Assembly: GCF_008000775.2 (NCBI RefSeq) | Contig: NZ_CP042905.2 | Span: 4,140,001 to 4,172,000, forward strand | Length of the DNA stretch: 32,000 nt | Reading direction: 5' to 3' | Source of the DNA: Promethearchaeum syntrophicum | GTDB lineage: Archaea; Asgardarchaeota; Lokiarchaeia; Sigyniarchaeales; Promethearchaeaceae | Shown here: positions 1,790 to 30,975 of the stretch, in pieces | Layout: the number at the start of each line of letters is the position of its first letter | Position numbering within the stretch: position 1 is the first letter of the stretch | Notes under the pieces: model-generated | The model's database searches: none | Told to the model about the DNA's origin: nothing | What the model saw: only the letters and a program-made list of their open reading frames with translations | Translations under genes and position numbers: made by a program

Positions 1790-2941
1790 ATGACAGAAGA
1801 CCACACAACCTTAGATTTAGAATATGATAGAATGTTATTAGAAGACGTATTTGATTCCCCAAATCTCAGGTACGTATCGTTGTATATGTATATAATTCGG
1901 AAAGATTTATTCCAAGATTTACTGGATGATGATGTCATTGAACAATTTGAAACTATAACATCACTAGATGAACCAACTGTGGAGGATATAACTAGAATAT
2001 GCACAGGAGATTTTATTAAAGCATTATTTCAATATAAAATGATTACCAATCTTCGATCCTATGAAATCTTTCAATCTAAGGGAAATGATTTTAAAATTCG
2101 GTTTGCTAAAGGATTAAATCTAACCCATGATGAATTATCAGAATCCGAAGAGGAAGTTCATATATTTTTCAACGAAGCATATTTAGAAAGAATTTTAAAT
2201 CCTATCATTCCAGAAATGACACAGACTCGAATACATGAATCACTGGAAAGACTTAGAGCGATGATGTGTCCGAAATCATCTATGATTCATGAACTTGTTC
2301 ATAAATATGGGGATTTTTATGTAATTGATGATGATTTCTACTATATTATTGAGGAATTTGGAAATCCCTATCAAGCTTTAAGGATTGAATTAATGATTCG
2401 TGCAATGTCAAGCAAATACAAAGAAATTGAAAGTAATATAAATGAAGTATTAAAGCAATATGATTCTTCAATAGTTAAAGCACCAATAATGAAGAAATTG
2501 AAGCAGGCTAAAGAGAAAGGGAAAGAGGATTATGTTAAATATTTGATCGATAAATCACGTAAAAAAACTCTCCCCCATAAATTTTGGGTTGAATTTCCAG
2601 ATATTGAAATTCCAGATAATTATGTTAAATGGAAAGATTCTTTAAATCAGCTATTTAACCTTAAACTAAAATTTATAGATATTGATCTTAAAATGGATGA
2701 GTTAAGAGCACATTATTCAGGCAAAAACCAAAAAATGACTTATTTGAAATTCATTCAAAAATCTACATATGATGAAGACAATATATCAGAAAGAATTAAG
2801 ACTTTATTAATCGAAGCGCGAAATTCTTTGAAGGAAGTAAGTGAGAATTTAGAGAAATATCCTAAGAAAGAAATGAAATTACTAAATTTAGATATCGAAC
2901 GAATGATAATTGAAAAAGGATTAGATGAGGAAGAAGACTAG
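1790..2941 (+). CDS. Hypothetical protein, operon gene 1 (383 aa, helical, acidic C-terminus)
   Basis: Long ORF in AT-rich DNA. AGGAG sits 6 nt upstream of the ATG. The stop abuts the next gene's start. No motif recognised. Confidence 0.8.
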   Translation: MTEDHTTLDLEYDRMLLEDVFDSPNLRYVSLYMYIIRKDLFQDLLDDDVIEQFETITSLDEPTVEDITRICTGDFIKALFQYKMITNLRSYEIFQSKGNDFKIRFAKGLNLTHDELSESEEEVHIFFNEAYLERILNPIIPEMTQTRIHESLERLRAMMCPKSSMIHELVHKYGDFYVIDDDFYYIIEEFGNPYQALRIELMIRAMSSKYKEIESNINEVLKQYDSSIVKAPIMKKLKQAKEKGKEDYVKYLIDKSRKKTLPHKFWVEFPDIEIPDNYVKWKDSLNQLFNLKLKFIDIDLKMDELRAHYSGKNQKMTYLKFIQKSTYDEDNISERIKTLLIEARNSLKEVSENLEKYPKKEMKLLNLDIERMIIEKGLDEEED

Positions 2942-3916
2942 GTGAAAAATATGGGTGAAATTTGTCCAGCATGTGGAGAAGCAGAACTAACTGAATTAGT
3001 ACCGGGAGTAAAAAGTTGCCCCGCTTGTCGAAAGGTATTTCGTTCGAAGGTTGAAAAGAAAAAAATTCAAAAATCGGAAGGAAAACTTCTTGATGGGGAG
3101 TATTGGATGAAAAATACTACTCTTAATCCAAAATATGAAATTGCCGATAAAGGAATAACGATTTTTAGGGAGGAAAATAAGTTATGGTTTGCAGTTTTAT
3201 TGTGTCATACCCCTGATTTCCCTGATTCAAAATATATTCGATTATCTTGGTGGAAAAAAAGTGTGAATATCCATGCGGGTATGTTTAAAATTGAAGATTT
3301 GGATGAATTAGAAAATGTTTTAATCGCATTGAATCGTATTGAAGAAGATTTCGATGAATATTTTGAAGTAAAGGATAATAAGAAAATTTCATATGAGCCT
3401 ATTCCAGAAAGAAAGGATATTGATGATGAATCTTATGTTTTTAATCTAACTAAAAGAAAATGCCCAAAATGTGGTTGGAAAATGAAAAAAAGTAAAAATC
3501 ATCGCTATTATGAATGTGAAAAATGCGGAGAAATTATCGTATTAGATGATGGGCATCCGATTTATGATATCCCATCAAAATATTTACCAATGTCATATTC
3601 AACTAATTACCCTATCAATTTCTATTTACCCAATTATGGAATTACAGTTAGTAATAAAATGGGGAATTGGAAAGCGATTATCACAATCCATGCAAAAGAA
3701 AACCCCGACAAAAGATGGTTACGATTTTATTGGTGGAGAAGAAATTTCCAACATTATATGACTAGTCAATACTCACTTGGTTCATCCCAAGGATTAAAAT
3801 GGGAAACGCGAAAAGGAGTTATGTCACCCAACATCTATGATAAGAAGTTGATAGCCCCACTAATTAAAGGATTAGAAGAAATGAAGAAAATTTGGTTAAT
3901 GAGTAAAGAGGAATAG
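2942..3916 (+). CDS. Double zinc-ribbon protein with internal two-fold duplication, operon gene 2
   Basis: GTG at 2942, or ATG 9 nt downstream. Ribbon 1 is CPACGEAELTELVPGVKSCPAC and ribbon 2 is CPKCGWKMKKSKNHRYYECEKCG. Each ribbon is followed by a roughly 110-aa domain carrying a WW(K/R)(K/R) motif: YIRLSWWKK and WLRFYWWRR. Confidence 0.8.
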   Translation: MKNMGEICPACGEAELTELVPGVKSCPACRKVFRSKVEKKKIQKSEGKLLDGEYWMKNTTLNPKYEIADKGITIFREENKLWFAVLLCHTPDFPDSKYIRLSWWKKSVNIHAGMFKIEDLDELENVLIALNRIEEDFDEYFEVKDNKKISYEPIPERKDIDDESYVFNLTKRKCPKCGWKMKKSKNHRYYECEKCGEIIVLDDGHPIYDIPSKYLPMSYSTNYPINFYLPNYGITVSNKMGNWKAIITIHAKENPDKRWLRFYWWRRNFQHYMTSQYSLGSSQGLKWETRKGVMSPNIYDKKLIAPLIKGLEEMKKIWLMSKEE

Positions 3917-3918
3917 AG

Positions 3919-5064
3919 ATGGAAAACGAATTAGAAAGCGATTTATGGTCAGAATTGATAGAAAAATTTGGAAATTCTATAAAAAAATCCTTAGAAGTAA
4001 TCAAGGAAAGAGATATTGAGAATATTCCAGGAGCAAAAGAACAATTAATAAGACGCTTTGAAGAATTAAATCGATATCTTCCACGAAATAATGGAGAAAT
4101 TATGATTAAAAGTATAGATGAATCGATTTCGAACTCATTTTTTCCTCAAACCAACAAATTAGCTGTAGCATTTGAAAAAATTTTAAAAACTCTCGAACAA
4201 CAGCATGAAAATGCATTTATAATTAATGAATTAATTAATGGGTTTGTTGCCAGTCAAAGTAAATCGTTTGGATCCTTTAAAGAAGGGCCTATTATAGATC
4301 GTATTATTGAAGCCTTTAAAAAATCAAAGAATTTTCGTATATCTGATTATTCTTTTTATGCAATGTTTGGAAACCCAAATAAACCCAGAAAAAATCTCCA
4401 AACTAATTTGAAATCAATAGCAGAATTTCTTGGATTAGTAAAAGAAGAAAAAATATATGCACGTGATCTTGCTAGAAGTGAGGAAAAAGCAGTTAATTTC
4501 TATACATTCCCTCCGGAAATCTTAGAATTATTAGAAGGAACCTATATTATTCACACTGAAAAAGGCGAGACAATTATTAATGATGATTTTGATAAGAACG
4601 TCTTTACCAGCTTATTCTTGGCAAGATATTCAGTTGGGAGAAAAAACCTAGATGCCTACAAAATAAATGGAATCTGTGCAATTTTTGCTCTTATTCTCAT
4701 ATTAAGCTTTATGCCTAAAGTTAAATTAGCGGAAAATAACCCTATTTTACGTGATCGTAATTATGATTCCCAAAATATGAGTGTGATTCCGAAATCTTGG
4801 ATGATGAAAGAAGTTTTAGTAGAGTTACTTCCTAGCACTATCGAAATAGTAGCATATAGAATGGGAGCATCTCTATGGTATAATAAAATCGAAAAATCTG
4901 ATGCTCAAAAACGATTGCATCTTCAAACTCGATTTTTAATTAAGGATGTTAATAAATGGGTACTAGGAAACTTGTGTAGAGTAGAAATCCCAATATTTGT
5001 TGAAATAAGTAATATTTTCCAGGAAATTACTGTAGATGGAACAGATACGGATTATAATAATTAA
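3919..5064 (+). CDS. Hypothetical protein, operon gene 3 (381 aa)
   Basis: GAGGA lies upstream of the ATG, with a 2-nt gap from gene 2. One segment, VFTSLFLARYSVGRKNLDAYKINGICAIFALILIL, resembles a segment of gene 4. Confidence 0.8.
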   Translation: MENELESDLWSELIEKFGNSIKKSLEVIKERDIENIPGAKEQLIRRFEELNRYLPRNNGEIMIKSIDESISNSFFPQTNKLAVAFEKILKTLEQQHENAFIINELINGFVASQSKSFGSFKEGPIIDRIIEAFKKSKNFRISDYSFYAMFGNPNKPRKNLQTNLKSIAEFLGLVKEEKIYARDLARSEEKAVNFYTFPPEILELLEGTYIIHTEKGETIINDDFDKNVFTSLFLARYSVGRKNLDAYKINGICAIFALILILSFMPKVKLAENNPILRDRNYDSQNMSVIPKSWMMKEVLVELLPSTIEIVAYRMGASLWYNKIEKSDAQKRLHLQTRFLIKDVNKWVLGNLCRVEIPIFVEISNIFQEITVDGTDTDYNN

Positions 5065-5084
5065 CACATATACGGTGAAAAATC

Positions 5085-6332
5085 ATGGCACGTGAAAGAT
5101 GGGAAGAAATTGTAGCATATTATAAAACTTACATTTCGATACTTCAACCTTTATTGAAAGAAACCAGAAGACTTTTCTTAGATTTGACTTCAGAAGAATT
5201 ACTGGATTTTTCAGCTTTACAAGAAAAATTGGAAGAGGAAACTAAAAGAAAAATCAATACAGTAAAAGCCATTGCAGAATTTAATGCTTTTTTCAGGAAA
5301 GAGATTTTTAAACATATTCTTAACTATATCGGAGAAGTTCAGAAAGATTTTGAAGTCCTTGATATAAAGGATAATATAATAGATTTCCTAGATGAATCTA
5401 TTCATGCATTTGATGGTTTATTAGCCTTAATTCAAGAAGATTTTTCAAAACAAGAAGGATCCCCCTTGAATTTTCTGTTCGACTTGTTAAATGAAATATT
5501 ACTTCCAAATGGAGATAATCTGGAAAGTATTTATGAACAGTTATTAGAAAAATCTGAAGAGTGGTATGAAGCTCAAAGGCATATTCTTAGCCCAACTACA
5601 TTTTATAGGGAAAAAATTGGAGAAATGACAATTCCTGGATTAAGTCCAAAAACATATCAGATTATAAATGGGATTACCTCACTTTTTAACCTCGATCCAA
5701 ATTATTTGGATATGGATGAAAATCCTAATTATGTTGTACCTGCAATTATGGTCTCTGACATTTTTGAACCTTACATAGATAATATTGCAAATGCTGAGGA
5801 AGAGTCAATTAAAAGAATTTGCAGTAGATTGGAATTACGAATCACTGATGGAATTTTTATATCTCCCTCAGAGGAATTATTACAATTAGCAGAACCGCAT
5901 AACTTTTTCAGTAGACAAAATGATTCAGATGGAAAAACTCGTTGGATTCCTCAATTCAGTAATGAAACATTTGTATTATTATACTTAGCAAAGGTATCCA
6001 TGCGAAGAGGGTTCCTTTCAAAAGAACTAATTAATTGGATATCGATGAATTTCTCATTTATTATTTATAACACAGTTTTACACGCAAATCTATCCGATGA
6101 GAATATTTTTTATAATTTATTCTTAGATCTTAAAACTGAAGAAAAAATCATTCCGTATTTAATGAAAATCTTGTGTTTTGAGAATTATCTTAGATTAGAC
6201 AGAACTAAAATACGTGATTCTCCGGTATACAGGAAAGAACTATTCAATTTTCTAGGATCAAAAATTGAAATAATTGATAAAATAACATATCTACTAGTAG
6301 AGAAATATGAAAAATTTATGAATCCTAAATAA
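5085..6332 (+). CDS. Hypothetical protein, operon gene 4 (415 aa), possible distant paralogue of gene 3
   Basis: GGTGA lies upstream of the ATG. The segment TFVLLYLAKVSMRRGFLSKELINWISMNFSFIIYN aligns by eye with the gene 3 segment (shared pattern F..L.LA[RK].S..R..L....IN.I...F..I). Confidence 0.8.
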   Translation: MARERWEEIVAYYKTYISILQPLLKETRRLFLDLTSEELLDFSALQEKLEEETKRKINTVKAIAEFNAFFRKEIFKHILNYIGEVQKDFEVLDIKDNIIDFLDESIHAFDGLLALIQEDFSKQEGSPLNFLFDLLNEILLPNGDNLESIYEQLLEKSEEWYEAQRHILSPTTFYREKIGEMTIPGLSPKTYQIINGITSLFNLDPNYLDMDENPNYVVPAIMVSDIFEPYIDNIANAEEESIKRICSRLELRITDGIFISPSEELLQLAEPHNFFSRQNDSDGKTRWIPQFSNETFVLLYLAKVSMRRGFLSKELINWISMNFSFIIYNTVLHANLSDENIFYNLFLDLKTEEKIIPYLMKILCFENYLRLDRTKIRDSPVYRKELFNFLGSKIEIIDKITYLLVEKYEKFMNPK

Positions 6333-6352
6333 AAAAAAAAAAGTGAAAAATA

Positions 6353-7423
6353 ATGACATTTACAATTGAAGAAATGCAACAGCGTTTCAGAAAATTTGGG
6401 ACAATTTATTCAGGTGATGATATCAGAGAAGATGTTGAAGATATTATCGGATTGGAAGATAAAAAAGAGATGATGGCTGATTTTTTTCTATCATTAAAAA
6501 AATATGGCGACATAGCTTCTAACTTACAAGCTGCAAAAATCGCACCTAATTTTACTATGTTACTATATGGCCCTCCTGGAACAGGCAAAACAGCATTAAC
6601 TAGAGCAATGGCAAAGAAATACGAGATTCCAATGGGACTAGTTGATGCAGATAGGTTAGTATCTCCATTATTGGGAGATACTGTGAAAAATATTCGAGGA
6701 GTATTCGATTTAGCAGCAGAATTTTCAAAGGAAAATGGCGTATTTCTTCTTTTTTTTGATGAAATTGATGCCATAACAGGAGAACGTGCAAATGCACATG
6801 AAGTAGGTGAAATTAAAAGAGCAGTCATATCTTTCTTACAAATAATTGATAAAATTTCTTATGATGCTATCCCTCTAGCAATCTTCGGAGCAACGAATCA
6901 TGAAAAACAATTAGATTCAGCCATATGGAGAAGATTTACGTATCATTTAAAATTTCAATTTCCAAATTTTATTGTTCGTAAAAATATCCTAGAATCTTTC
7001 ATTCTCCGAGTTGAAAAAGCAACAATTGGAATAGATCCACGCTTAACGGAATCAATTGAATCAGAATATAAATTTTTATTCCAGAGATATTCAAAATTGA
7101 AAGAAAAATTAGGAAGAGAATTGAACGACGAAGAATATTATGGAATTTTTGATGAATTGAAACAAAAGGGTAAAGAAGGAATTCTATATCATACTTTAGG
7201 ATATACAGGGGCAGATTTAATGCGGGCAATGAGGGTAGCTTTGTTCAAAGCATTACAAAAGAATATGTTGTTGTATGATGATTATTTTCGATCCTTAGAA
7301 TTAGTCGGAGGAACTGAAACACACGTTTTACAAGGATTACGACTAGCTAAAGAGAATTCAGCAAACCAAGAGGAAAATAAACCTCCTACAAGTGATTTAA
7401 GTGATTTTGATATAGATATTTAA
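6353..7423 (+). CDS. Classic-clade AAA ATPase with a very short N-terminal region and an acidic C-terminal tail, operon gene 5
   Basis: Walker A is GPPGTGKT (about 6569-6592) and Walker B is LLFFDEID (D-E at 6758-6763). Sensor-1/SRH reads GATNHEKQLDSAIWRRF. The lid motif is GYTGADLMRAMRVAL. No MIT, CDC48-N or other N-domain is seen. Confidence 0.9.
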   Translation: MTFTIEEMQQRFRKFGTIYSGDDIREDVEDIIGLEDKKEMMADFFLSLKKYGDIASNLQAAKIAPNFTMLLYGPPGTGKTALTRAMAKKYEIPMGLVDADRLVSPLLGDTVKNIRGVFDLAAEFSKENGVFLLFFDEIDAITGERANAHEVGEIKRAVISFLQIIDKISYDAIPLAIFGATNHEKQLDSAIWRRFTYHLKFQFPNFIVRKNILESFILRVEKATIGIDPRLTESIESEYKFLFQRYSKLKEKLGRELNDEEYYGIFDELKQKGKEGILYHTLGYTGADLMRAMRVALFKALQKNMLLYDDYFRSLELVGGTETHVLQGLRLAKENSANQEENKPPTSDLSDFDIDI

Positions 7424-7566
7424 ACGAATCGAGGGGAATTATAATTTTAGAAAGAAATTACACTGATATTAAAATAATAAATCGGGATTCTGTTCAATTT
7501 TTTTCGGAAATCATCGATTCCATTAAAGAAAATCAGAGTAATTTAGATGAACCTGCAGATTCTTAT

Positions 7567-8265
7567 ATGGAATTACTTTCTGAACAGATTAATAATAATA
7601 TCTCCGATATGGCAATAATTTTTAAGAAAATTCAGAAATTTCTAACTGAAGATTATCAAAACGAACTGTTTTTTGACATGCAAAATCTTTCAAAATATTC
7701 AATTGTAAAAGAAATAGGTATTAATCTTCTTAAAAATCGAATTCTCGAAAAACCAATAGAAAGCGATAATATTGTATTTGCAATATATAAAAAATATTGG
7801 GACGCATTGCTACAAAGAATGATTAAATCTTCTAAATTCAATTCTACAATAGAAAAACTAAAAAATTTTCATTATGAGGCTATTAATGATAAAATTAATG
7901 AAGAACTAAAGAAAATCCCAATAGAGATAGATCCAAGTGTAAGGGATGACTACAAAAAAGCATATTATAGTAATCCTTTAACTTTTAGTGAATATCTAAA
8001 TTTTGAACAGAAAAAGCATAAAGAAAGCCAATATTCTCAAGAACAACCAGATTCTTTTAATTCCTCAGAGAAATTACGGAAAGAATTTGTGATGGCCGTT
8101 GAAAAAAAAAAAATTGACAAGAAAAAGGAAGAACAGGAAAAGCAATTTGATAATTATAATGCGTATTTCAACATGGATGATCGCCAATTACAACGCGCTA
8201 AAAGAAATGGAAAAATGAGAAGAAAATATACTAAAAAAACGCGAAAGGAGAAATACAAAAAATGA
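7567..8265 (+). CDS. Hypothetical helical protein with a strongly basic K/R-rich C-terminal tail, operon gene 6. The N-terminus may extend upstream to about 7438.
   Basis: The C-terminus is RAKRNGKMRRKYTKKTRKEKYKK. The stop overlaps the next start (ATGA at 8262-8265). The reading frame is open upstream to 7411, with GAGGGG (7431-7436) preceding ATT/ATA codons. Confidence 0.75.
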   Translation: MELLSEQINNNISDMAIIFKKIQKFLTEDYQNELFFDMQNLSKYSIVKEIGINLLKNRILEKPIESDNIVFAIYKKYWDALLQRMIKSSKFNSTIEKLKNFHYEAINDKINEELKKIPIEIDPSVRDDYKKAYYSNPLTFSEYLNFEQKKHKESQYSQEQPDSFNSSEKLRKEFVMAVEKKKIDKKKEEQEKQFDNYNAYFNMDDRQLQRAKRNGKMRRKYTKKTRKEKYKK

Positions 8266-9893
8266 TTAAACTTAATATTGATTCACATGAAATTCCTATT
8301 AATCAAAAACTGATGTTTCTCCAAGGAAATTATGATATTAATACAATTGAGAATCTTCCTTATTCTTGGATTGACTGGAATGAAAATCTAGAGATTTTAT
8401 TTAGAGACTCAGATTTGTTGATTGAATTTTTTTCACGTTTAAATTCCATTATCACTCATCAAAATTCAAAAAAAATAGGTTTAATATCTGATATCTGGAG
8501 AAATCTATATTCTACATTAAAAGAAAATAAAAATAATATTGCAAAATATGAAAAATTCAATGAGCTCAGTAAAAATTTGCGAAGTAAATCAAATTTGCTT
8601 CAAGATATTGAACGTTTAGAGTTAATGGAAAAAAATCTTGACCAAATGGTAAATCAAAGCATCTTTCAAAGTAAAAAAGATTTATTGCTTAAATTAGAAA
8701 AATTACTCGTAACACAAACTACAGAATTTAATATTCAATCTGATGAATTTTTTGTTAATAAACAAAGAGTTGATGAAAATCTTGCAATAATAACAAAATT
8801 TGACAACAATTTATCACGATTAAAGCAAGAACAAAGAATATTATTTAAGGAAACAAACGAACTCACAAAACAAATGGATTCTTTGGAGCCTTTAATGAAT
8901 GTTTATCAAGAAAAGCTTGAAGTGATTGATTCCTATAAAAATGGTAAAGATTATAATAGAATTAAAAAGAAATTCGAAGATATTGTAAAGGAACATGAAG
9001 ATTGCAAAAACGATAGAGTCCTCAAAATTAAAAAAAGCAAAGATATTACTCAAAAAATGCGGAATTTGCGAGTTCAGATTAAAAAAAATAACAATGATTT
9101 AAGAAAATTAGATTTGTCAAAGTTTAATGAAATTAAAAAAAACTATGAAGATTTAAAAACCGATCTCGAAAATACAAAAACTCAGATTACCTCAGTTCGA
9201 TTAGAAATTGATTCAATGTTAAATAACAGTGAAAAAAATGTCTCTCAAAATGATTTAAATCAAGATGATATGTTTTATTCAAACCCCACCGAAATTAAAG
9301 AACAATTGAAAAAGAAACGAAATCTAATCAGCCAAATCAATGATTTCTTTGAGAATACATATGATACCACCGATTTAGAGATAATTAAAAAGAAAATTGA
9401 TGCTGATAGAAGAAATTTATTGGATGAACTTACTTCCAATTCAGAAAAGCTTCAACTTTCATCTGAGAAATCTCACTATTATGAAGATTTATTAAAGAGA
9501 ATTAAAGAAATTCAATCATGGATGAATAAATTTTTGAGCAAAATTGATATGAAAATATCATTCTCTCTAGCATTTGATAAAGAAAACCTGAAATTAACAA
9601 ATAAAATTATGAAAAAAAATCAATATATCAACTTTAACACGGATTTAAAAAGAATTGAAAAAGCGTTTTTTTATTTTAGTGCGATAATTAGCAGTTACTT
9701 AGGAGAAAACTATAGGTTTATTCCCATAAGGATTAATAAATTGCCAAAATTTATGATAACGAAACAAAATTTCATAAAAAATATCAAAATGCTTGATGAT
9801 ATGTGTGAGGAATTACCTGAAGATATTAATATTATATTTTTTTTAGAAGAAAACAAGTTCGAAATTCCGTTAGAAATTATTAAAATTGACTAA
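8262..9893 (+). CDS. Long coiled-coil protein with SMC/Rad50/RecF-like end regions lacking a P-loop and Walker B (candidate degenerate SMC-like protein), operon gene 7
   Basis: AGGAG lies upstream. The N-terminus MIKLNIDSHEIPINQKLMFLQGNYDINTIENLPYS follows the SMC-head beta-strand pattern but has no GxxGxGKS. The central roughly 350 aa are K/E/L/N-rich heptad-like sequence. The C-terminus LKRIEKAFFYFSAIISSYLGENYRFIPIRINKL...INIIFFLEE mimics the signature/Walker-B/D-loop layout without the catalytic residues. Confidence 0.8.
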   Translation: MIKLNIDSHEIPINQKLMFLQGNYDINTIENLPYSWIDWNENLEILFRDSDLLIEFFSRLNSIITHQNSKKIGLISDIWRNLYSTLKENKNNIAKYEKFNELSKNLRSKSNLLQDIERLELMEKNLDQMVNQSIFQSKKDLLLKLEKLLVTQTTEFNIQSDEFFVNKQRVDENLAIITKFDNNLSRLKQEQRILFKETNELTKQMDSLEPLMNVYQEKLEVIDSYKNGKDYNRIKKKFEDIVKEHEDCKNDRVLKIKKSKDITQKMRNLRVQIKKNNNDLRKLDLSKFNEIKKNYEDLKTDLENTKTQITSVRLEIDSMLNNSEKNVSQNDLNQDDMFYSNPTEIKEQLKKKRNLISQINDFFENTYDTTDLEIIKKKIDADRRNLLDELTSNSEKLQLSSEKSHYYEDLLKRIKEIQSWMNKFLSKIDMKISFSLAFDKENLKLTNKIMKKNQYINFNTDLKRIEKAFFYFSAIISSYLGENYRFIPIRINKLPKFMITKQNFIKNIKMLDDMCEELPEDINIIFFLEENKFEIPLEIIKID

Positions 9894-9908
9894 AGAAGGT
9901 GGAAAACT

Positions 9909-10649
9909 TTGGCGAATGAAGTACTTTTACAGCAAATAAGTAGATTAATAATCCAGAATAAGAAAAAAATAGTTAACGAAAGAGATATAATAAATTTGTG
10001 TTCAAATGATGAAGAATATAAAGAAATACTCCCCATTTTAGTTCAGAATTTCAAACTTATAGGATTTTCCTTAATTCGAACAACTTTTCAAGGAAAGAGA
10101 TATTTCGTTTTAACAACTCCGGGAAAAGACGATATTATTTCTCCAAGTATGTACGGGACATTAGGATTGATTATTGCATTACATAATGAAGTCGGAAGAG
10201 AAATCGAATTAATTAAAATTAAACAGATTTTTAAAGAATTATGGGATGAAATTGAAGAATTAATCACGCATAACTACCTTCAAATTTCGAAAAATAAAGG
10301 ATCAGAGACACTAACTATAACTCCAATAGGAAAAGCGGCTTTTAAAAATATTTTGAAGGAGTTAAATCTTCCAAAAATTCTGACCTTCCAAGGTCTTGAT
10401 GAAACAATAATATCAACAGATGAACCATTAACAGAAACCGAAAAGAAAATAACAACCAAAAAGAAAACTACAAAGAAAAAGACTACAAAAAAGAAGACCA
10501 CTAAAAAAAAAACTACTAAGAAAAAGACTACTAAGAAGAAAACTACTAAGAAAAAGACTACTAAGAAGAAAACTACAAAGAAAAAGACCACTAAAAAGAA
10601 AACTACTAAGAAAAAGACTACTAAAAAGAAAACAACTAAGAAAAAATAA
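9909..10649 (+). CDS. Tandem winged-helix (kite/ScpB/MAGE-like pattern) protein with a C-terminal 13 x TTKKK tail, operon gene 8
   Basis: TTG start with GGTGG 7 nt upstream. Segments EYKEILPILVQNFKLIGFSLIRTTFQGKRYFVLT and YGTLGLIIALHNEVGREIELIKIKQIF...LITHNYLQISKNKGSETLTITPIGKAAF fit a two-WH pattern by eye. The tail is described below. Confidence 0.8.
   Translation: MANEVLLQQISRLIIQNKKKIVNERDIINLCSNDEEYKEILPILVQNFKLIGFSLIRTTFQGKRYFVLTTPGKDDIISPSMYGTLGLIIALHNEVGREIELIKIKQIFKELWDEIEELITHNYLQISKNKGSETLTITPIGKAAFKNILKELNLPKILTFQGLDETIISTDEPLTETEKKITTKKKTTKKKTTKKKTTKKKTTKKKTTKKKTTKKKTTKKKTTKKKTTKKKTTKKKTTKKKTTKKK
10452..10646 (+). repeat. In-frame 15-bp tandem repeat (13 units) encoding (TTKKK)13
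   Basis: Codon-by-codon reading gives 13 Thr-Thr-Lys-Lys-Lys units. Synonymous variation is present (aca/act/acc; aaa/aag). A 30-bp higher-order unit, actactaagaaaaagactactaagaagaaa, recurs. Confidence 0.95.
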
Positions 10650-10654
10650 AGCAA

Positions 10655-11821
10655 TTACAATTTATGTACGCCATCAGATGGAGTAACTTCGTAAGTAATT
10701 GCTGTTAATCCGAATTTTTCTTGGTATCCTTTTAATTTTGATATATATTCAGGAATTGCCTTCTTTTCTATCAATGTTAGAGTACACCCTCCAAAACCCG
10801 CACCGATCATCCTTGAACCATAACATCCTTCAATATTTTGGGCTGTTTCAACTAACCAATCCAATTCTGCACACGAAACTTCATAATATAATTTTAAACT
10901 TTCATGGGAGTCGTTCATTAATTGCCCGAATTTTTTTAAATCTCCATTTTTTAAGAATTTTTCAGCTTCAATAACTCGGTCATTTTCAGATATCACATGG
11001 AAAGCCCTTTTTTTTTGTTCGGGAGTGAAAAATTCACGAGATTTTTCATAATCCCCCATATTATAGTCTCGTAAAGATTTTCCGGGTTTAATTTCATTTA
11101 AAACTTTAACAGCTTCTTCACATTCAAAAACTCGTTCATTATATTTGGAAACGCTTAATTTGTGACTTACATTGGAATTTGTAATGATAAATCCTACAGA
11201 CTTTAATTTTAAAGGAATGTATCGATGATCGAGGGATCTACAATCTAAGAAAAATGCATTTCCAGCTTTTCCAAATTTTGCGGTAAATTGATCCATAATA
11301 CCACATCTTACCCCTACAACCTCTTGTTCCGCTTGTTGACAATATTTAGCCAGATCTTTATCTTTGATTTTCAATTTATATAATTGTTGAATCCCATAAG
11401 CTACAGCAACTTCTAATGCAGCAGATGAAGATAATCCTGCACCTTGTGGAATTGATCCCGTGAAAGAAACTCTTACACCACCAAATTTATGTCCGTGTTT
11501 TTGTAATATTTTAACAACTCCAATTGGATAATTTGCCCAATCATCACTACCGCTACTTTTCATTAAATATGCATACAAAGAAACGATTTTTTTTTCCTTA
11601 TCTAATGAGTAAACTGAAATTACCTCAGAATCTTGTATCCGCGAAATAGCTAAATCTATTCCAAGAGAAATAGCCATGGGTAACACAAATCCATCATTGT
11701 AGTCAGTGTGTTCCCCGATCAAATTAACTCGACCAGGAGAGTGGATAATTAACTCTGGAACCTCACCATATATCTCTTTATGTTTATCTATCAAAAGATT
11801 CTTATTTTTCATTTCCAACAA
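10655..11821 (-). CDS. galK: Galactokinase (GHMP kinase family)
   Basis: PGRVNLIGEHTDYNDGFVLP is the galactokinase signature and PQGAGLSSSAA is GHMP motif II. The C-terminal GAGFGGC is also present. Start is TTG at 11821 or ATG at 11812. Confidence 0.9.
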   Translation of the reverse strand: MLEMKNKNLLIDKHKEIYGEVPELIIHSPGRVNLIGEHTDYNDGFVLPMAISLGIDLAISRIQDSEVISVYSLDKEKKIVSLYAYLMKSSGSDDWANYPIGVVKILQKHGHKFGGVRVSFTGSIPQGAGLSSSAALEVAVAYGIQQLYKLKIKDKDLAKYCQQAEQEVVGVRCGIMDQFTAKFGKAGNAFFLDCRSLDHRYIPLKLKSVGFIITNSNVSHKLSVSKYNERVFECEEAVKVLNEIKPGKSLRDYNMGDYEKSREFFTPEQKKRAFHVISENDRVIEAEKFLKNGDLKKFGQLMNDSHESLKLYYEVSCAELDWLVETAQNIEGCYGSRMIGAGFGGCTLTLIEKKAIPEYISKLKGYQEKFGLTAITYEVTPSDGVHKL

Positions 11822-11904
11822 TAACTAGTATTCATATATGTAAAAAAGACTTACCAACAACGATTATATGTTGAAGCAAAAAAGAAGAAAAAGAAAAAAA
11901 ATTT

Positions 11905-12345
11905 TTATCTTAAATCCATTTCAGCACAAAAATTATCAAATAAGCGCTTTATTCTATCGTGAGTTGGACCCCGTCCTTCAACTCCAGACTCAGTAATGAT
12001 GATTTTTCCACCTAAAAGTTTAATTGAACCACCATCATCATGTAATTCAATGCTTTCGTCTGGAAGAATCTTTCTTAATCTTTCCACAAGTTTATCCATC
12101 GGAAAAGGCTCTCCTTCAATTGCGATGGACTCCCATATTCCCCGAATAAAAATTTTCTCAGTTTTTTGCCTTTTCTCATTAATAGCATTAGCAAGGCAAA
12201 TTGATAATGAATTTACTTCAAATCCTACAAGACGACCAGTATAGTAGTGCCCTTTCTCTTTATCAATAACCACTCTAACCATCGAATTGAGGGCTTGTAC
12301 AATTTCTTTATTAAATTCTCGCGCAGCATTGGATGCGATGCTCAT
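11905..12345 (-). CDS. Sm-like (LSm) fold protein with a C-terminal extension
   Basis: VRVVIDKEKGHYYTGRLVGFEVNSLSICLANA...IFIRGIWESIAIE fits the Sm1/Sm2 motif pattern (G..D..hN..L......IRG..I). An extra domain of about 65 aa follows. Confidence 0.5.
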   Translation of the reverse strand: MSIASNAAREFNKEIVQALNSMVRVVIDKEKGHYYTGRLVGFEVNSLSICLANAINEKRQKTEKIFIRGIWESIAIEGEPFPMDKLVERLRKILPDESIELHDDGGSIKLLGGKIIITESGVEGRGPTHDRIKRLFDNFCAEMDLR

Positions 12346-12422
12346 AATATCTTTAATATTTAAATTCTCAAAAACTTTGCGAAAAATGTTAAAGGAGAAA
12401 ATAATTAAAGAAATTACCGATT

Positions 12423-14438
12423 ATGAAAGAAAAATCCAAAATCCATGGTAAAAAATTAAATCCAGCAGAAATAAATGATTTGATTTTGGATTATGAAATT
12501 CTTCCTAAAACACATTCACCAATGTATTTGATGCATAAGTATTGGGCTAGAAAACCCGCAAATATCGTTGCTAATTACATTAAACGCTATTGTCCGCAAG
12601 AAGGTATTGTTTTAGACCCCTTCATGGGATCGGGAGTAACAATTTTAGAATCAATTTTTAGTAATCGTTTAGCCATTGGTATTGACGTGAATCCTATGGC
12701 AAATTTTATAACAAAAAATACTGGAATTTACGCCGATATATATAAACTAGAAACCGCATTTCAAATAATTAAAAATGAAGTTGAAAAAAAAAATTCTATA
12801 TTCTCACTTCTCTATGAAATTCAATGTGATTCGTGTAAAAACAGTAAAGCGATAATTACTCACATAATATGGTTAAAAAAGAAAGAAGATTTGAATCATC
12901 AAATAGAAGAGATCAGATATAAGTGTTCAAATTGCGGAGAAATAGTTATAAATAATTCAGATCTTAATTCTAGTTTTATTTCAATGAAAGAATTTATTTT
13001 GAATCAGGAGATAAATGCTTTAACATTTCTTTCTAAAGACGAAATAAAAAATCCGAATGTTTCATTCAAATATACAAATAATCAAGCGTTTATACAATTG
13101 CGACATAATTTACGAAAACAACCAGAACTAACCGAACTATTTACACAACGGAATTATGCTTTTTTGGTTTTTTTAATTCATATAATTAATAAATTATCAG
13201 ATAACTACGAAAATGAGAAAGAACTCTTAAAATTCTGCTTTACTAGCTCATTAGCACAAGCAAGTAAAATGGTTTGGGTCATCAATAAACGTAAGGGAAA
13301 AGCATTAAAAAAAAAACAAGTAGGTTCTTGGACCCACCACTTTTTTTGGGATCCATCAAATTTTTTCGAGGTTAATGCATGGAATTGCTTTAAACATAGA
13401 TATTCTAAATTAAAAAATGGAAAAATCGATTCTAATAAAAGAAATAAGAATTCAAATTCAACTTTTAAATTGGCAGATTCTTTTAGTGATCTTTCAATTA
13501 AAAAGCCTGTTCTCCTATGGAATACATCTTCAACGAAATTGGAACTACCAAATAATACTGTAGATTTTGTTTTTACTGATCCTCCTTACGGAGATTCTAT
13601 CCAATATGGTGAACTTTCAACTTTATGGAATGCCTGGTTAGATGTCGATATGGATCGATATAAAAAAAAAATGGAATTGAATGAAATTATAATCAATACA
13701 CATCAAGGAAAAAATTTGAAATCATACGAATTTAACCTAAAAAAAGTATTCAGCGAAATTTTTAGAGTTTTAAAGCCAGATAAATATATGGTTTTGACTT
13801 TTCATAATACATCTTTCAAAATTCGTAATGCACTGATAAATTCAGTAGTATCTTGTGGTTTTGAATTATGTCAAATATTATTTCAGTTACCTCCACGAGT
13901 TTCTATTAAATCTATGCTACATCATGAAGGTTCTCCTATAGGAGATTATTATATTAGATTCCAAAAACCTCTTCAAAGCCTAGATGATAAGAAAAAAACC
14001 AAATTAAAAACCTTAGACAATGAAGAGATCTATAAGATAATTAAAGATAAAATTAGCGAAATCCTAAAAAAACGGGGAGAACCAACTAATTTCATGTGGA
14101 TTTCAAACTTTCTAGATGAAATGCTATATAAATCTCATATATTTCCAATAGATAATCTTGAATTCTATATTACAAGACTTAAAAACTCCAATTTTTTTCA
14201 TATTAGTAAAGAAGGAAAATGGTGGTTTACACATGATTCAATACCAAAAGATTGTGAAAAACCTTTAACTGCGCAAATTGAAGATTTCTTAGAAATTTAT
14301 CTTAAGGATCACTGGTTAGATGTTAAATTATCTGATAGGACAAAAAAGCAAAAAATATTTAATGAAATTTATCGAAAATTTCGCGGTGTATATAGTCCAG
14401 ATAAATTTGAAACTAATCAAATAATCGAAAAATCTTAA
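12423..14438 (+). CDS. DNA (N6-adenine/N4-cytosine type) methyltransferase with motif I before motif IV and an inserted Zn-ribbon (COG1743/DUF1156-like architecture)
   Basis: The N-terminus has HKYWARKP, then DPFMGSGVT (motif I, about 12615-12641). A Zn-ribbon CDSC...CSNCGE follows, then TDPPYG (motif IV, about 13575-13592). Confidence 0.85.
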   Translation: MKEKSKIHGKKLNPAEINDLILDYEILPKTHSPMYLMHKYWARKPANIVANYIKRYCPQEGIVLDPFMGSGVTILESIFSNRLAIGIDVNPMANFITKNTGIYADIYKLETAFQIIKNEVEKKNSIFSLLYEIQCDSCKNSKAIITHIIWLKKKEDLNHQIEEIRYKCSNCGEIVINNSDLNSSFISMKEFILNQEINALTFLSKDEIKNPNVSFKYTNNQAFIQLRHNLRKQPELTELFTQRNYAFLVFLIHIINKLSDNYENEKELLKFCFTSSLAQASKMVWVINKRKGKALKKKQVGSWTHHFFWDPSNFFEVNAWNCFKHRYSKLKNGKIDSNKRNKNSNSTFKLADSFSDLSIKKPVLLWNTSSTKLELPNNTVDFVFTDPPYGDSIQYGELSTLWNAWLDVDMDRYKKKMELNEIIINTHQGKNLKSYEFNLKKVFSEIFRVLKPDKYMVLTFHNTSFKIRNALINSVVSCGFELCQILFQLPPRVSIKSMLHHEGSPIGDYYIRFQKPLQSLDDKKKTKLKTLDNEEIYKIIKDKISEILKKRGEPTNFMWISNFLDEMLYKSHIFPIDNLEFYITRLKNSNFFHISKEGKWWFTHDSIPKDCEKPLTAQIEDFLEIYLKDHWLDVKLSDRTKKQKIFNEIYRKFRGVYSPDKFETNQIIEKS

Positions 14439-14509
14439 AAGATTTAATTTTTAATATAGTAGAAATTATATTTTTTACCTTCCCTATTAATATAGGAGAA
14501 AAATTAAAT

Positions 14510-15532
14510 TTGGCGAATTGTAGTTTTCCAGAATGCGATGAGGTCTTAAATTACTTACCTTTTCGATGCAGATACTGTGGTGGAACTTACTGTAAAAAAC
14601 ACAGACTACCAGAAAATCATAAATGTTCCTTTGAGCTTCAAATACAACCTAAGAAAGAGGTTTCCCAAGAATTAAAACATTTAAAAGAAGAAGAGAAAAA
14701 ATCTAAAAATAATCAAATTCCTGAAGATAAATCCTATGAACAAATCGATAAGGAAATGCGTAATTATATTCGAGAACAAGAAAGAGCTGCAATGCCCCCA
14801 CCTCCAAGTCGTACGAGAGGAACTTTTGGTAGTCGTTCAAGAGGATATTCTCCTTTTATTTCGAGATCCAGTAAGCCAATAGGGACTTACTCCTTAATGG
14901 GATTATCAACTTTATTTTTTATTCTCTCACAAATTCAAGTGATTCCAGAATATATTTTACTTAATTTAAATACTCTTAGATTTGAATTCTTAACCCACTT
15001 TCCTTCTTTTTTCACAGCAATATTAACTCCTAATGGTTTGATTTCATGGATATTTACATTACTCATTCTATTTTGGTCTGGTAAAGTAATTGAAATGCAG
15101 ATGGGAACTAAATTCTTATTAACATTATATTTACTATCTGGTATTGCAAACGGTTTTGCGATTATTTTACTCCAATCGATAGGTCTTTTTATTAATATTC
15201 CGTTTTTTACTGCTATGACATATAATTTAAATTTATATTCTACTCAAAATGGCGCGTATTATGGATTAATGGTATTTATTCTTTATCGAATCGGGTTAGA
15301 TCGTGAAATGCGATTTTATCTATATTTTATTCCTGTTAGAATGAAAGCTAAATACATTCTCTATTTCATGATTGGAATCCAATTAATATATGGAGGTTTT
15401 GGAATAGTGAGAATTTTACTTGAATTGGAGGGTGCATATTATATTTTATCTTCTTTACCCCAACTTGGAGGAATTTTAGTCGGAGCTTACTTCTGGAAGA
15501 AATTTGGACGTCAAATAGTGAATTTTGTGTAA
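14510..15532 (+). CDS. AN1-type zinc-finger protein fused to a rhomboid-like multi-pass membrane domain that appears to lack the catalytic Ser/His
   Basis: TTG start with GGAG upstream. The AN1 pattern is CSFPEC...FRCRYCGGTYCKKHRLPENHKC. The rhomboid-like layout is WSGKVIEMQMGTKFLLTLYLLSGIANG...TQNGAYYGL...PQLGGILVG. Confidence 0.75.
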   Translation: MANCSFPECDEVLNYLPFRCRYCGGTYCKKHRLPENHKCSFELQIQPKKEVSQELKHLKEEEKKSKNNQIPEDKSYEQIDKEMRNYIREQERAAMPPPPSRTRGTFGSRSRGYSPFISRSSKPIGTYSLMGLSTLFFILSQIQVIPEYILLNLNTLRFEFLTHFPSFFTAILTPNGLISWIFTLLILFWSGKVIEMQMGTKFLLTLYLLSGIANGFAIILLQSIGLFINIPFFTAMTYNLNLYSTQNGAYYGLMVFILYRIGLDREMRFYLYFIPVRMKAKYILYFMIGIQLIYGGFGIVRILLELEGAYYILSSLPQLGGILVGAYFWKKFGRQIVNFV

Positions 15533-15574
15533 ATGTTTTTTTTCTTGCAATAACTTTTTTACGATTAATTTGTA

Positions 15575-16924
15575 ATGGATGATATAATGAGCATTGAATT
15601 TGAGGTTTTTATCGAGATTCCAAAAATCGCCGGGAAAATTGAAATTCCTAATAATCAAGAATTGATACATATTGGAAAACGCGAAATTAAAAATAGTGTT
15701 GTAAAAAATTTATCAGATCCAAGAGCTTTCGATTCAATTTCTAGCGTAAGAACTGATAAAGATACAGGAGCAGTAATTAAACAACAATTTATAATATCCA
15801 GAGTAAAAGATAAATATTTCATTGAAGATCAGAATAGCGCTAATGGCACGTATTTAGGAGGGATTAATCTTAAACAAAGCCCCCCAGCACCCTTGAAAAG
15901 CGGAGATGAAATTATAATTCCTATTGAAGAAAATGGTGAATTAATTCAGCTAAAAATGTATTTTCATATTGAAAAAAAAAAATCTGCTCCAGGAGCTCAA
16001 TCACAGCAGAAACAAATCCATTATCCAACACTGGATTTAGATGAAGCAGAATATTCTGATCCTACAATAACCCCTACAATCCCATCTTCGGCAAATCAAG
16101 CAGTAAAGGCAGGTTCATATCAATATAAATCCTTTATTTATGATCCCAACGATCCGATAAACACTTCCAATAGTTTTATTATGATACAGAGAACTCAAGC
16201 CATTCCACCCAATGCTTTCCAACCCAATTCTGGTTTAGACCTTTCAATGGTATATAAATTAGAAAAAAGTGAATTTTGGCATATCTTAGTTGCAGTGGGA
16301 TTGCTTTTTCTAATGATTTATAGGTATTATATAAATATTAATTTAATATTTTTAATTATCGGCTTGATAACTGATTCTCCGGGTCCTTCTTTAAATGATT
16401 TCTTTATTCAACCCTTACCTATTGCTCTTATTTTCGGTATTTCATTTATAACTCATGAATTATCTCACTTACAAACAGGAAAACATTTCAATTTTCAAAG
16501 TAGGTTTTGTCTAACTAAAGTTGGTGTAAAAGCCACTTTAAAATGGGCATTAATTGGATTTCCTTTTGGTCTCCCGGGTGCTGCGGTTTCAGTTGGTGTC
16601 GATCCAGTTAAAGATGAGGATAAGATGGGTTGGATAAAAATCGCGGGTCCATTTTCAAATTTTGTTTTAGGAGTAATTTTTATAATTCTTGCATTTTTCA
16701 TTCCAAGTGGCTCAATTATTGATTTAAAAGCCATTTTCGTACAAGCTAGTTCCTTAAATTTTGTTTTAGGAGCGTTTAATATGATTCCGCGAGAAGTGAA
16801 AGGATTTGCATTGGACGGGAAATTTATCATTAAATGGAATAAACCATGGTATTTTACGCTACTAGCAGGTTTAATATTGGGTTTTGCAACCGCAATTTTT
16901 TACTCCAATTCAGTTAATACTTAA
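15575..16924 (+). CDS. FHA domain fused to an M50 (site-2 protease) family intramembrane metalloprotease
   Basis: The FHA pattern is IHIGKREI...FIISRVKDKYFIEDQNSANGTYLGGINL...LKSGDEIIIP. HELSH lies at 16454-16468 in a TM helix. The downstream NMIPREVKGFALDG matches the M50 N..P....LDG motif. Confidence 0.8.
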   Translation: MDDIMSIEFEVFIEIPKIAGKIEIPNNQELIHIGKREIKNSVVKNLSDPRAFDSISSVRTDKDTGAVIKQQFIISRVKDKYFIEDQNSANGTYLGGINLKQSPPAPLKSGDEIIIPIEENGELIQLKMYFHIEKKKSAPGAQSQQKQIHYPTLDLDEAEYSDPTITPTIPSSANQAVKAGSYQYKSFIYDPNDPINTSNSFIMIQRTQAIPPNAFQPNSGLDLSMVYKLEKSEFWHILVAVGLLFLMIYRYYININLIFLIIGLITDSPGPSLNDFFIQPLPIALIFGISFITHELSHLQTGKHFNFQSRFCLTKVGVKATLKWALIGFPFGLPGAAVSVGVDPVKDEDKMGWIKIAGPFSNFVLGVIFIILAFFIPSGSIIDLKAIFVQASSLNFVLGAFNMIPREVKGFALDGKFIIKWNKPWYFTLLAGLILGFATAIFYSNSVNT

Positions 16925-17208
16925 TTGTTTTAAAAAATGAAATTTATCCAGATCTTTACATAATATCCGCTTTTTTTTCAATATTCCTTTTTAATTTAAA
17001 CACAAATCTTTCAAGGGATTTAATTCTTGGTTCCTTTTTTTCTTCATATTAAAGATAACATAGAAAAAATCTTATTATGATTCATAGTTCATTCATACTA
17101 TTGAAATCAAATAGGTTATTAAGAAAATAGACGTTTTTGTCCAAAAAGGATATAAATATAGAATAGGATTTACAATAATGGAAGTAATTTATTCTGAAAA
17201 TTAAAAAA

Positions 17209-28699: not shown

Positions 28700-28798
28700 C
28701 GGGCCATGAGGGATTCGGACCCCCGACTTGCGGGTTTCTTCAAACATTTTTCAATATTTGTAAAAGCCCGACACGCTACCTGGCTGCGTCAATGGCCC
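28700..28798 (-). tRNA. Intron-containing tRNA, anticodon read as UUU (Lys), with a 25-nt intron at the canonical 37/38 position
   Basis: The reverse complement is GGGCCAT-TG-ACGC-AGCCAGGTA-GCGT-G-TCGGG-CTTTTA[caaatattgaaaaatgtttgaagaa]A-CCCGC-AAGTC-GGGGG-TCCGAAT-CCCTC-ATGGCCC-G. The acceptor stem is a perfect 7 bp, the D stem 4 bp and the T stem 5 bp (one G-U). The 27:43 pair is a mismatch, and the T-loop has C at position 55. Confidence 0.75.
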
Positions 28799-29058: not shown

Positions 29059-29697
29059 TTATAACACTGTGGTTAAAAAACTAATCCAAGTTCCTATGAG
29101 CAAAAACGCAATAAAATATTGAAAAAAATGATTTATTTTCACAAAACCATTTTTCAATGCTAATTTTGAATACTTTTTAATTGTTTCTTCTGGTAAAAAA
29201 ATCCCGGTATTCTTAAAAAATTCATGAAATCGGATCACAATACGTTTATTCCATTTAATGTATTGAACGATGAAATAAATAAAACCCACAGTTTCAGCTA
29301 TTATTAGAAATAGTCCTATAGCATAGATTGAGAATTTTTCAAGAATACCTGCAACGAAAAAAACAAGAAAAACTATTATCCCTTCTGTTATCAAAATTGG
29401 ATTAAATTTGTTGTAGTTATACTTATCTTTCCAGTCTATTGCACTATCACCGGCCATTTGTACAGCGATATAAGGAATTCCATGTTCGTAACTATTTGCA
29501 TGAATGCCGATTTTTAAAACATCATCCTGAATATCTAAATAGTGATCCAAATCATCATGTTCTATTGTTTCTTCGAAATCAGCAATTTTTGCTTTAGTAG
29601 GTTCTTTTTCACGAGTTTCATTTAATTTCACATCATAGAAAATTTTTAAGAGTTTATTTTCAGCTTCTTCTTTCGATAGCATATCAATCAAATCCAT
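29059..29697 (-). CDS. Tandem-array membrane protein paralogue, type C (divergent)
   Basis: It shares the family layout: EEAENKLLKIFYDVKL...ANSYEHGIPYIAV...2 TM...KWNKRIVIRFHEFFKNTGIFLPEE...C-terminal TM. Confidence 0.8.
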   Translation of the reverse strand: MDLIDMLSKEEAENKLLKIFYDVKLNETREKEPTKAKIADFEETIEHDDLDHYLDIQDDVLKIGIHANSYEHGIPYIAVQMAGDSAIDWKDKYNYNKFNPILITEGIIVFLVFFVAGILEKFSIYAIGLFLIIAETVGFIYFIVQYIKWNKRIVIRFHEFFKNTGIFLPEETIKKYSKLALKNGFVKINHFFQYFIAFLLIGTWISFLTTVL

Positions 29698-29717
29698 TCA
29701 TTTTTGATCTATTCTCA

Positions 29718-30326: not shown

Positions 30327-30328
30327 CT

Positions 30329-30943: not shown

Positions 30944-30975
30944 GTAATCAGCTCGTTTGATTTTTATCTATATTT

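Follow-up and report, generated by a model that had tools for sequence, protein, structure and literature searches.

SMC5/6-related complexes are already known from archaea: the SMC5/6-related aSMC protein has a patchy distribution in Asgard archaea, and extra kite paralogues are co-localised with distinct SMC and kleisin genes (Yoshinaga and Inagaki 2021, PMC8665677; van Hooff et al., bioRxiv 10.1101/2024.01.07.573240); the term 'AAA' is absent from the report of van Hooff et al. A similar combination of an SMC-like protein, a kleisin and a kite is found in MukBEF, MksBEFG and Wadjet, and the ASRPs (ClsN/coalescin and Sph1/2) are short archaeal coiled coils that carry an SMC-type head at one end, lack a canonical hinge and retain both Walker motifs (A and B) and a Zn hook (PMC9389158). 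The subject of this report is an operon of eight genes (g1 to g8) in a stretch of 32,000 nucleotides (nt), hereafter the window, of the Promethearchaeum (Prometheoarchaeum) syntrophicum MK-D1 chromosome. The operon differs from the SMC5/6-related sets in that an AAA+ ATPase (g5) and four orphan proteins (g1 to g4) are obligatory companions, and in that the window has no functional SMC: g7, at half the length of an SMC, lacks a hinge and bears neither Walker motif (A or B) nor a signature motif. No description of the eight-gene embedding with an AAA+ ATPase and orphan proteins, of the motif-less SMC form or of the alternative cassettes presented below was found by locus tag or keyword in the literature, coverage of which was incomplete.

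The eight open reading frames are co-directional and tightly packed within positions 1790-10649 of the window:

1790-2941, + strand: g1, 383 amino acids (aa)
2942-3916, + strand: g2, 324 aa
3919-5064, + strand: g3, 381 aa
5085-6332, + strand: g4, 415 aa
6353-7423, + strand: g5, 356 aa
7438-8265, + strand: g6, 275 aa if read from ATT/ATA at 7438-7446, or 232 aa if read from the ATG at 7567 (7567-8265)
8262-9893, + strand: g7, 543 aa
9909-10649, + strand: g8, 246 aa

The successive junctions measure 0, 2, 20, 20, 143, -4 and 15 nt, the fifth of which falls to 14 nt if g6 starts at 7438, so that with g6 extended no junction exceeds 20 nt. A motif resembling a Shine-Dalgarno sequence (AGGAG, GAGG, GGTG or GTGA) lies 5-12 nt 5' of each start, and both GC content and GC skew are uniform across the operon and the surrounding window. 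The eight genes form one operon, as had been proposed in an original prediction made from the DNA letters, the coordinates, junctions and ribosome-binding motifs of which were all borne out. The same prediction had noted that the gap between g5 and g6 would shrink to about 14 nt if g6 were extended, and this too agrees with what was found: the g6 frame is open from 7411, and the 43 in-frame codons 5' of the ATG at 7567, where public gene calls begin g6 (232 aa), are open and are conserved as protein with a relative (locus L003), in which the start codon is TTG. Judged by this conservation, the upstream extension is real coding sequence. It contains no ATG, GTG or TTG either in MK-D1 (ATT ATA ATT TTA, behind a GAGGGG motif) or in a second Promethearchaeum genome (L005; ATC ATA ATA ATA), and g6 appears to start at a non-canonical start codon. 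The DNA of the window is also present on a Logan contig of run DRR199588, and the g7 product is identical to DSAG12_00351.

When each GTDB species was represented by one genome, relatives were found in 127 genomes. In 80 fetched loci, from genomes labelled Loki-, Thor-, Hod-, Hermod- and Odin-, genes were recognised by family hidden Markov models (HMMs). Of these loci, 55 have the whole array g1 to g8 in the same order, while most of the incomplete patterns end at contig ends; recurrence of the same order at this frequency is far beyond chance. The conservation extends to the flanking genes, which in the window are as follows:

1018-1635, - strand: Elf1-like transcription elongation factor, 205 aa (Pfam Zn_ribbon_Elf1, 7.4e-18)
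1636-1789, no strand: divergent intergenic region between the Elf1-like gene and g1, 154 nt, AT-rich, presumed to be a bidirectional promoter
10655-11821: galactokinase gene, between g8 and the Lsm gene in the window
11905-12345, - strand: Lsm/SmAP-like protein (Pfam Lsm_C), convergent to g8

Of 60 loci, 58 have an Elf1 gene directly upstream of g1 and divergent from it; of 61, 54 have a convergent Lsm gene directly downstream of g8. The eight-gene array therefore has the behaviour of a core system that Asgard archaea keep at a fixed locus. The comparison of gene neighbourhoods across Asgard genomes that the original prediction had proposed thus came out in its favour, whereas its description of the operon as an orphan has to be given up, since the array is phylum-wide and syntenic, flanks included. 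For g4 there are 596 homologue clusters (~50% identity) in records labelled Lokiarchaeota, Thorarchaeota and Hodarchaeota; a HMMER search of 1.84 billion representative proteins with the g4 profile gave 40 matches, of which every named one that was checked is from an Asgard archaeon; and a scan of viral contigs with g4 returned no relative.

The two halves of the operon evolve at different rates. Median identities to the window proteins are 34% for g1, 43% for g2, 52% for g3, 48% for g4 and 52% for g5, so that g1 to g5 are slow-evolving; g6 (22%) and g7 (18%) are fast-evolving, and g8 stands at 38%. Departures from the complete order include L032, in which g1 to g5 are followed by no g6, g7 or g8 match within the locus, and L083, in which an insertion of ~8 kb separates g5 from the g6 match; each of these two loci also holds a second, weak Elf1-like match. 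The complete operon, flanked by Elf1 and Lsm, also lies on a 62-kb contig (L046, DATKTW010000134.1) that was deposited as 'Candidatus Nanopelagicaceae bacterium' and is probably mis-binned.

The g7 protein has to be read together with a set of variant operons, found in a minority of Asgard genomes, which house the most distant g4-like proteins. Five variants are complete (L085, L086/L087, L089, L091 and L092), originating from a Helarchaeota metagenome-assembled genome (P0160), 'Harpocratesius repetitus' (P0168) and three metagenome contigs. Their gene order is g1-like, g3-like, g4-like, g5-like AAA, an SMC of 1053-1087 aa, two proteins of ~300 aa (k1 and k2) and g8-like, such that the SMC, k1 and k2 take the place of g6 and g7. 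Homology to the canonical proteins was established by hhalign with probabilities of 99.3% (g1), 100% (g3), 99.9% (g4), 100% (g5) and 98.6% (g8), and the variant proteins of the g1-to-g5 part are strongly diverged from the canonical ones; at least four of the five variants (including L086, L091 and L092) have g2 within or beside them, upstream or on the opposite strand, and fragments of it lie beside the fifth. The variant SMC has intact motifs (GxNGxGKS, HSSGQKQ and IDEFDxGLD) and a hinge-like central segment, and matches Pfam AAA_23, AAA_21 and SMC_N. Its best PDB matches are eukaryotic SMC6 (8e-44, end to end) and SMC5 (2e-28), followed by prokaryotic Smc (1e-21), the cohesin and condensin SMCs (1e-16 or weaker) and Rad50 (1e-8), and by its motifs and matches it is a bona fide SMC, closest to SMC5/6; it also scores against the LmuB, JetC and AriA models. 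Its neighbour k1 is a tandem winged-helix protein (HTH_45 in four of five, up to 9.6e-10; MksE in two of five), and k2 matches Nse4_C in three of five (best E = 0.0013, below the Pfam cut-off), so that k1 appears kite-like and k2 resembles an Nse4-like kleisin. The SMC, k1 and k2 of the variants correspond to the archaeal SMC5/6-related SMC-kleisin-kite set already described (Yoshinaga and Inagaki 2021, PMC8665677; van Hooff et al.). A metagenome scan with an alignment of the variant SMC confirmed no locus.

Canonical and variant operons are alternative occupants of one locus, as the shared flanks of two of the variants indicate. In the H. repetitus variant (L086), the Lsm and galactokinase genes lie directly before the cassette and the DNA methylase, zf-AN1/rhomboid and FHA/M50 genes beyond them, all of which are downstream neighbours of the operon in the window; after the L092 variant come Elf1, two small genes and a Hexapep gene, which are the window's upstream neighbours; and in Harpocratesius sp. 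GCA_054039255.1 (L094) it is the canonical g1 to g8 that adjoins galK and Lsm. The variant cassette is inverted relative to its flanks (L086 7510-18823), and beside it, on the other strand, H. repetitus has a g2 of the canonical type (L086 19187-20164, - strand; 399 bits against the canonical HMM), suggesting in-situ replacement of the cassette with retention of g2. A third and more divergent arrangement occurs at L088 (50-7476), where genes for a 359-aa protein, a 711-aa g4-like protein, a 347-aa weakly g3-like protein, a 706-aa g4-like protein and a 220-aa protein were found and no AAA or SMC domain is reported.

With a true SMC in the place of g6 and g7 in the variant operons, g7 is probably a reduced, hinge-less SMC derivative without ATPase motifs. 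Over its whole length it aligns with the variant SMC at an hhalign probability of 72.8% (E = 3e-5), with its motif LTTPEK opposite HSSGQKQ. Among 33 aligned orthologues the N-terminus consists of three successive strands and then a near-invariant glycine (consensus TLIxGKFKK; MFLQGNYD in the window), and the C-terminal consensus is ...F..LTTPEK.FF.I.FYISI...IIFSNLFIP..YNK.GSI.RTIRKILP...LIFIISNLE, which may be read as following the SMC pattern LSGGEK...hhhhDE...QFI.ITH with each catalytic residue replaced. Neither a Walker A motif of the form GxxGxGK[ST] nor a Walker B motif is present in any of the 33; LTTPEK (DLKRIEK in the window) stands where the signature motif LSGGQ/E would be, and IIFSNLFIP where the Walker B hhhhDE would be. 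In the AlphaFold2 model, built on a shallow alignment, ~350 residues are helical: two confident helices, 75-221 and 228-427, are separated by a break at 222-227. The model contains neither a hinge domain nor a CxxC motif, and its predicted TM score (pTM) of 0.33 is too low to show a fold-back of the chain. The protein ends in an alpha/beta lobe. The top Foldseek matches of the model are Rad50 (1.9e-5), the Smc5/6 arm (1.3e-3), MukB (4e-3) and then Smc coiled coils. Protein searches with g7, as a single sequence or as a broad alignment, returned the same 16 close relatives. The earlier picture of an SMC-shaped protein lacking catalytic motifs thus stands, backed by the context of the variant operons; g7 fails every functional test of the SMC family and is therefore not classed as an SMC ATPase. 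The ASRPs differ in that they retain the Walker motifs and Zn hook, none of which g7 has.

The product of g8 consists of a conserved core of ~165 aa, a putative tandem winged helix, followed in the window by a (TTKKK)n tail, which is encoded by the following repeat:

10443-10646, + strand: (TTKKK) repeat in g8, 15-nt unit, 13.6 copies (Tandem Repeats Finder)

Most g8 orthologues are tail-less, with a median length of 169 aa, and L003 has only a short tail; by this comparison the tail is a lineage-specific, recent local expansion and not the core feature for which it had been taken. In the SMC variant operons the last gene is a homologue of g8 (98.6%, as above). The g8 family is also weakly collinear with the tandem winged-helix protein k1 (24%, E = 8e-4), and its members have weak, sub-threshold matches to RQC, DUF4364 and ScpB. 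The original prediction of a kite-like protein is plausible on these grounds, the homology to an SMC-operon gene fitting a kite without proving one. The g6 product is rich in K, R and E, with conserved basic C-terminal segments, and is ~346 aa long in most Asgard genomes.

The g5 product is a single-domain classic-clade AAA+ ATPase (Pfam AAA, PF00004, 2.1e-25; 90.1 bits against a cut-off of 21.2) and, as anticipated, the sole evident enzyme of the operon. In 73 family members the Walker A (GPPGTGKT) and Walker B (LLFFDEID) motifs are conserved at 90% or more, and the second region of homology (ATNHEKQLDSAIWRRF) with its adjacent arginines is conserved as well, reading LDSAIWRRF in Vps4-like fashion; the Walker motifs, sensor 1 and the adjacent arginines are features in common with Cdc48/p97 D1, Vps4/CdvC and PAN. 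At the pore-loop-1 position the window and the family consensus read SPLLGDT, where the non-aromatic LLG replaces the aromatic-hydrophobic-Gly pattern, and the position is likewise non-aromatic in p97 D1; the best solved relatives of g5 are the D1 domain of p97/VCP (~3e-32). In contrast to other members of the classic clade, g5 has no recognisable N-terminal substrate domain, be it an N-domain, MIT or OB domain. The best-scoring named family is the anti-phage ATPase IetA/IteA (PADLOC 1.7e-55; NCBIfam 3.3e-51), the similarity, of 174.6 bits where the cut-off is 510, being limited to the ATPase core (residues 36-223), the second-best NCBIfam match resembles CdvC/Vps4 (CdvC 89.9 bits against a cut-off of 650), and every NCBIfam equivalog is far under its cut-off. 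An IetAS (Ietis) system was rejected on the basis of the core-only score, the absence of a protease gene in or next to the operon, and the core-gene behaviour of the array, and an ESCRT/Cdv (Vps4/CdvC) system on the basis of the CdvC score and the absence of any MIT or Snf7 match in the operon proteins.

Scans of all eight proteins against Pfam, NCBIfam and PADLOC gave nothing beyond AAA and Zn ribbons, and among the profile searches envisaged in the original prediction, those of PDB sequences with the g1, g3, g4, g7 and g8 families returned nothing significant. The g2 protein is an internal duplication, as foreseen: its halves are related by BLASTP at E = 1e-6, each with a CxxC...CxxC Zn ribbon and then a conserved W-rich domain (RLSWWKK / RFYWWRR), and the eight cysteines of the Zn ribbons are all strictly or almost strictly conserved among 49 sequences; matches in Pfam and PDB profile searches are at the Zn-ribbon level only. 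For g1 there is no Pfam, NCBIfam or PADLOC match, and a search of PDB sequences with the family profile was empty. The same three databases gave no match for g3 and g4, for which profile searches of PDB sequences also found no relative. The suspicion that g3 and g4 are distant paralogues was confirmed by hhalign, in which g3 matches the variant-operon g4 family at a probability of 92.7% (E = 4e-7); the g3 and g4 profiles compared directly give E = 0.0046. The AlphaFold2 model of g4 is confident (mean predicted local distance difference test (pLDDT) score 86.6, pTM 0.88); in it a helical bundle at the N-terminus and a helical domain at the C-terminus flank a central alpha/beta region that resembles a winged helix.

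The classic-clade AAA+ ATPases work as hexamers that remodel proteins, and they choose their substrates through N-domains or adaptors. Because g5 has no substrate domain of its own, is always encoded with g1 to g4, and stands beside both forms of the SMC, the most economical reading of g1 to g5 is a remodeller. The explanation we prefer, to which we give about an even chance, is that the operon encodes a conserved Asgard multiprotein system of two modules, in which the AAA ATPase remodels an SMC-like scaffold. Module A would comprise the orphan protein g1, the Zn-ribbon protein g2, the paralogous helical and winged-helix proteins g3 and g4, and g5; module B (g6 to g8) would be the remainder of an SMC5/6-type SMC-kleisin-kite complex. 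In module B, g7 would descend from an SMC of the variant type, its head having lost both Walker motifs (A and B) and the signature motif; g8 would be the small winged-helix partner common to it and the intact version; and g6 would be a basic protein filling the rest of the SMC/kite/kleisin slot. Together they may form a non-catalytic rod or ring scaffold on DNA, which the AAA hexamer, with g1 to g4 as adaptors, would assemble, load, extract or recycle by ATP-driven remodelling, so that in most of the sampled Asgard genomes the SMC part would now be a passive coiled-coil scaffold with basic DNA-binding partners. The original prediction had left open whether the AAA ATPase replaces a dead SMC or acts on it. 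Because the AAA module is found beside both live and dead SMCs, with the same AAA family next to the intact one, replacement is disfavoured, and action on an SMC-type complex is the better reading.

Several results weigh against this explanation. The C-terminal head lobe of g7 alone scores 21.1 (E = 0.012) against the variant SMC by hhalign, where shuffled controls score 8-14 and the reversed sequence 17.9, and the N-terminal lobe alone gives nothing; g7 is undetected by Pfam SMC_N, by AAA_23 and by PDB sequence searches. The head regions of the g7 model have pLDDT below 50 at the pTM of 0.33 and are unreliable, owing to the shallow alignment, and the Foldseek matches may therefore mostly reflect long helices. 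No Pfam family was matched by g6 in 43 members scanned singly, nor was any relation of g6 to the variant kite, kleisin or SMC detected by hhalign (0.3% probability against k2). The g8 family profile found no relative among PDB sequences, and the kite identity is thus unproven; the g4 model has no Foldseek match in the PDB with E < 0.5; and the role given to module A is purely inferred.

As for the described SMC systems, the window resembles archaeal and eukaryotic SMC5/6 in that g8 is homologous to a gene of the variant operons and g7 aligns with the C-terminal half of an SMC; in contrast to SMC5/6, neither a kleisin nor a second kite is detectable in the window by hhalign, and genes resembling an SMC5/6-type SMC and an Nse4-like kleisin are found in the variant operons only. 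The weak JetC and MksE matches of the variant proteins recall MukBEF, MksBEFG and Wadjet, from which the operons differ by the absence of a JetD/MksG nuclease, by the much closer relationship of the variant SMC to SMC5/6 and, in the window, by the absence of an active ATPase head. Wadjet/Mks (JetABCD) was rejected as an identity for the operon, the only matches being g7 against PADLOC JetC (E = 0.044) and g3 against JetD (E = 0.0065, over 52 residues). A bolder proposal is that the operon encodes a chromosome machine ancestral or sister to the eukaryotic SMC5/6 holocomplex, with an AAA+ unfoldase and its dedicated adaptors g1 to g4 loading or unloading an SMC-kleisin-kite ring, g3 and g4 possibly matching Nse5 and Nse6, and the SMC being non-catalytic in most Asgard archaea, with all energy supplied by the AAA+ ATPase. 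This we regard as rather unlikely. As to Nse5/Nse6, the paralogues g3 and g4 are both helix-rich, but the g4 model has no significant similarity in the PDB; as to an Nse2-like SUMO ligase, Pfam found no SP-RING domain in the operon proteins.

Both SMC5/6 and Wadjet restrict extrachromosomal DNA, and by analogy the operon might serve surveillance of or defence against foreign DNA, with the AAA ATPase as effector or regulator. Such a function would agree with the IetA/IteA similarity of g5, the scores of the variant SMC against LmuB, JetC and AriA, the much faster evolution of g6 and g7 than of the other genes, and the presence in two Harpocratesius-labelled genomes of different cassettes by galK and Lsm, which is reminiscent of defence hot spots. 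It is nevertheless improbable, given that the position between housekeeping genes is fixed in 127 species genomes, that g1 to g5 retain 34-52% median identity to the window, that the IetA match is confined to the core and far under the family cut-off, that the Pfam, PADLOC and NCBIfam scans of the operon proteins gave neither an IetS, JetD or LmuA partner nor any effector domain, nucleases and proteases included, and that g4 has no relative on viral contigs. The novel defence system and the integrated element that the original prediction had offered as alternatives are both disfavoured by the fixed position, the slow evolution of g1 to g5, the lack of viral-contig relatives and the absence of a complete PADLOC system, and the integrated element was rejected. 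Just as doubtful is a protein-remodelling, cytoskeletal or membrane machine unrelated to DNA, in which g7 would be a structural coiled coil whose polymers are disassembled by the AAA ATPase with its Vps4-like second region of homology. The LDSAIWRRF sequence and the second-best NCBIfam match of g5 do resemble CdvC/Vps4, the Pfam matches among g7 family members are generic coiled-coil families only, and an SMC head in g7 is only weakly supported by sequence; yet Pfam and NCBIfam scans found no MIT domain and no ESCRT-III gene, the variants carry SMC5/6-type, kite-like and Nse4-like proteins while sharing g1, g3, g4, g5 and g8, basic segments are conserved in g6, and it is Elf1 that lies divergently next to the operon.

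It is less probable still that the operon is a mere co-transcription of two independent units, an AAA machine of g1 to g5 and a separate unit of g6 to g8 or of the SMC. The modules do differ greatly in evolutionary rate, module B is exchangeable for an SMC cassette while homologues of module A persist, L032 has nothing downstream of g1 to g5, and the g6 match of L083 lies ~8 kb off. These observations are countered by the adjacency, common direction and tight spacing of the modules in 55 of 80 loci and in all five complete variants, and by the strong divergence of module A in the variants, which suggests co-evolution with the SMC module.

Elsewhere in the window, the downstream neighbours of the operon at 10655-19470 (galactokinase, Lsm, a 671-aa N6/N4 DNA methylase, zf-AN1/rhomboid and an FHA/M50 peptidase) are a block that is conserved beside the operon in L003, L086 and L094, L003 having in addition the SBP_bac_5 protein. 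Five tandem paralogous genes of ~200 aa with 45-75% mutual identity occupy 29059-31999 on the - strand, the last of them cut by the end of the window; the N-terminal part of their products is soluble and conserved (SKEEAEEKLLKI.YDVKL...YEHGIP.FAV.MA.DSA), the C-terminal segments are hydrophobic, and none has a match in Pfam. A tRNA match extends over 99 nt at 28700-28798 on the - strand, against a model of 71 positions, which suggests that the tRNA gene contains an intron.

Eukaryotes have no closer known relatives among prokaryotes than the Asgard archaea, and SMC5/6 is, to our knowledge, the least understood of the eukaryotic SMC complexes, its origin and ancestral function being an open question. 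The comparison presented here places the Asgard SMC5/6-type complex within a larger conserved operon, together with an AAA+ ATPase and four families without known relatives, and in most of the sampled genomes the SMC has apparently been reduced to a motif-less form while the rest of the machine has remained under strong constraint. Between five and seven of the most conserved Asgard-restricted proteins are without an assigned function. Two carriers of the operon are cultured, P. syntrophicum MK-D1 and Lokiarchaeum ossiferum. If the AAA module is indeed a loader or unloader of the SMC-like scaffold, it would represent a new way to regulate SMC complexes.

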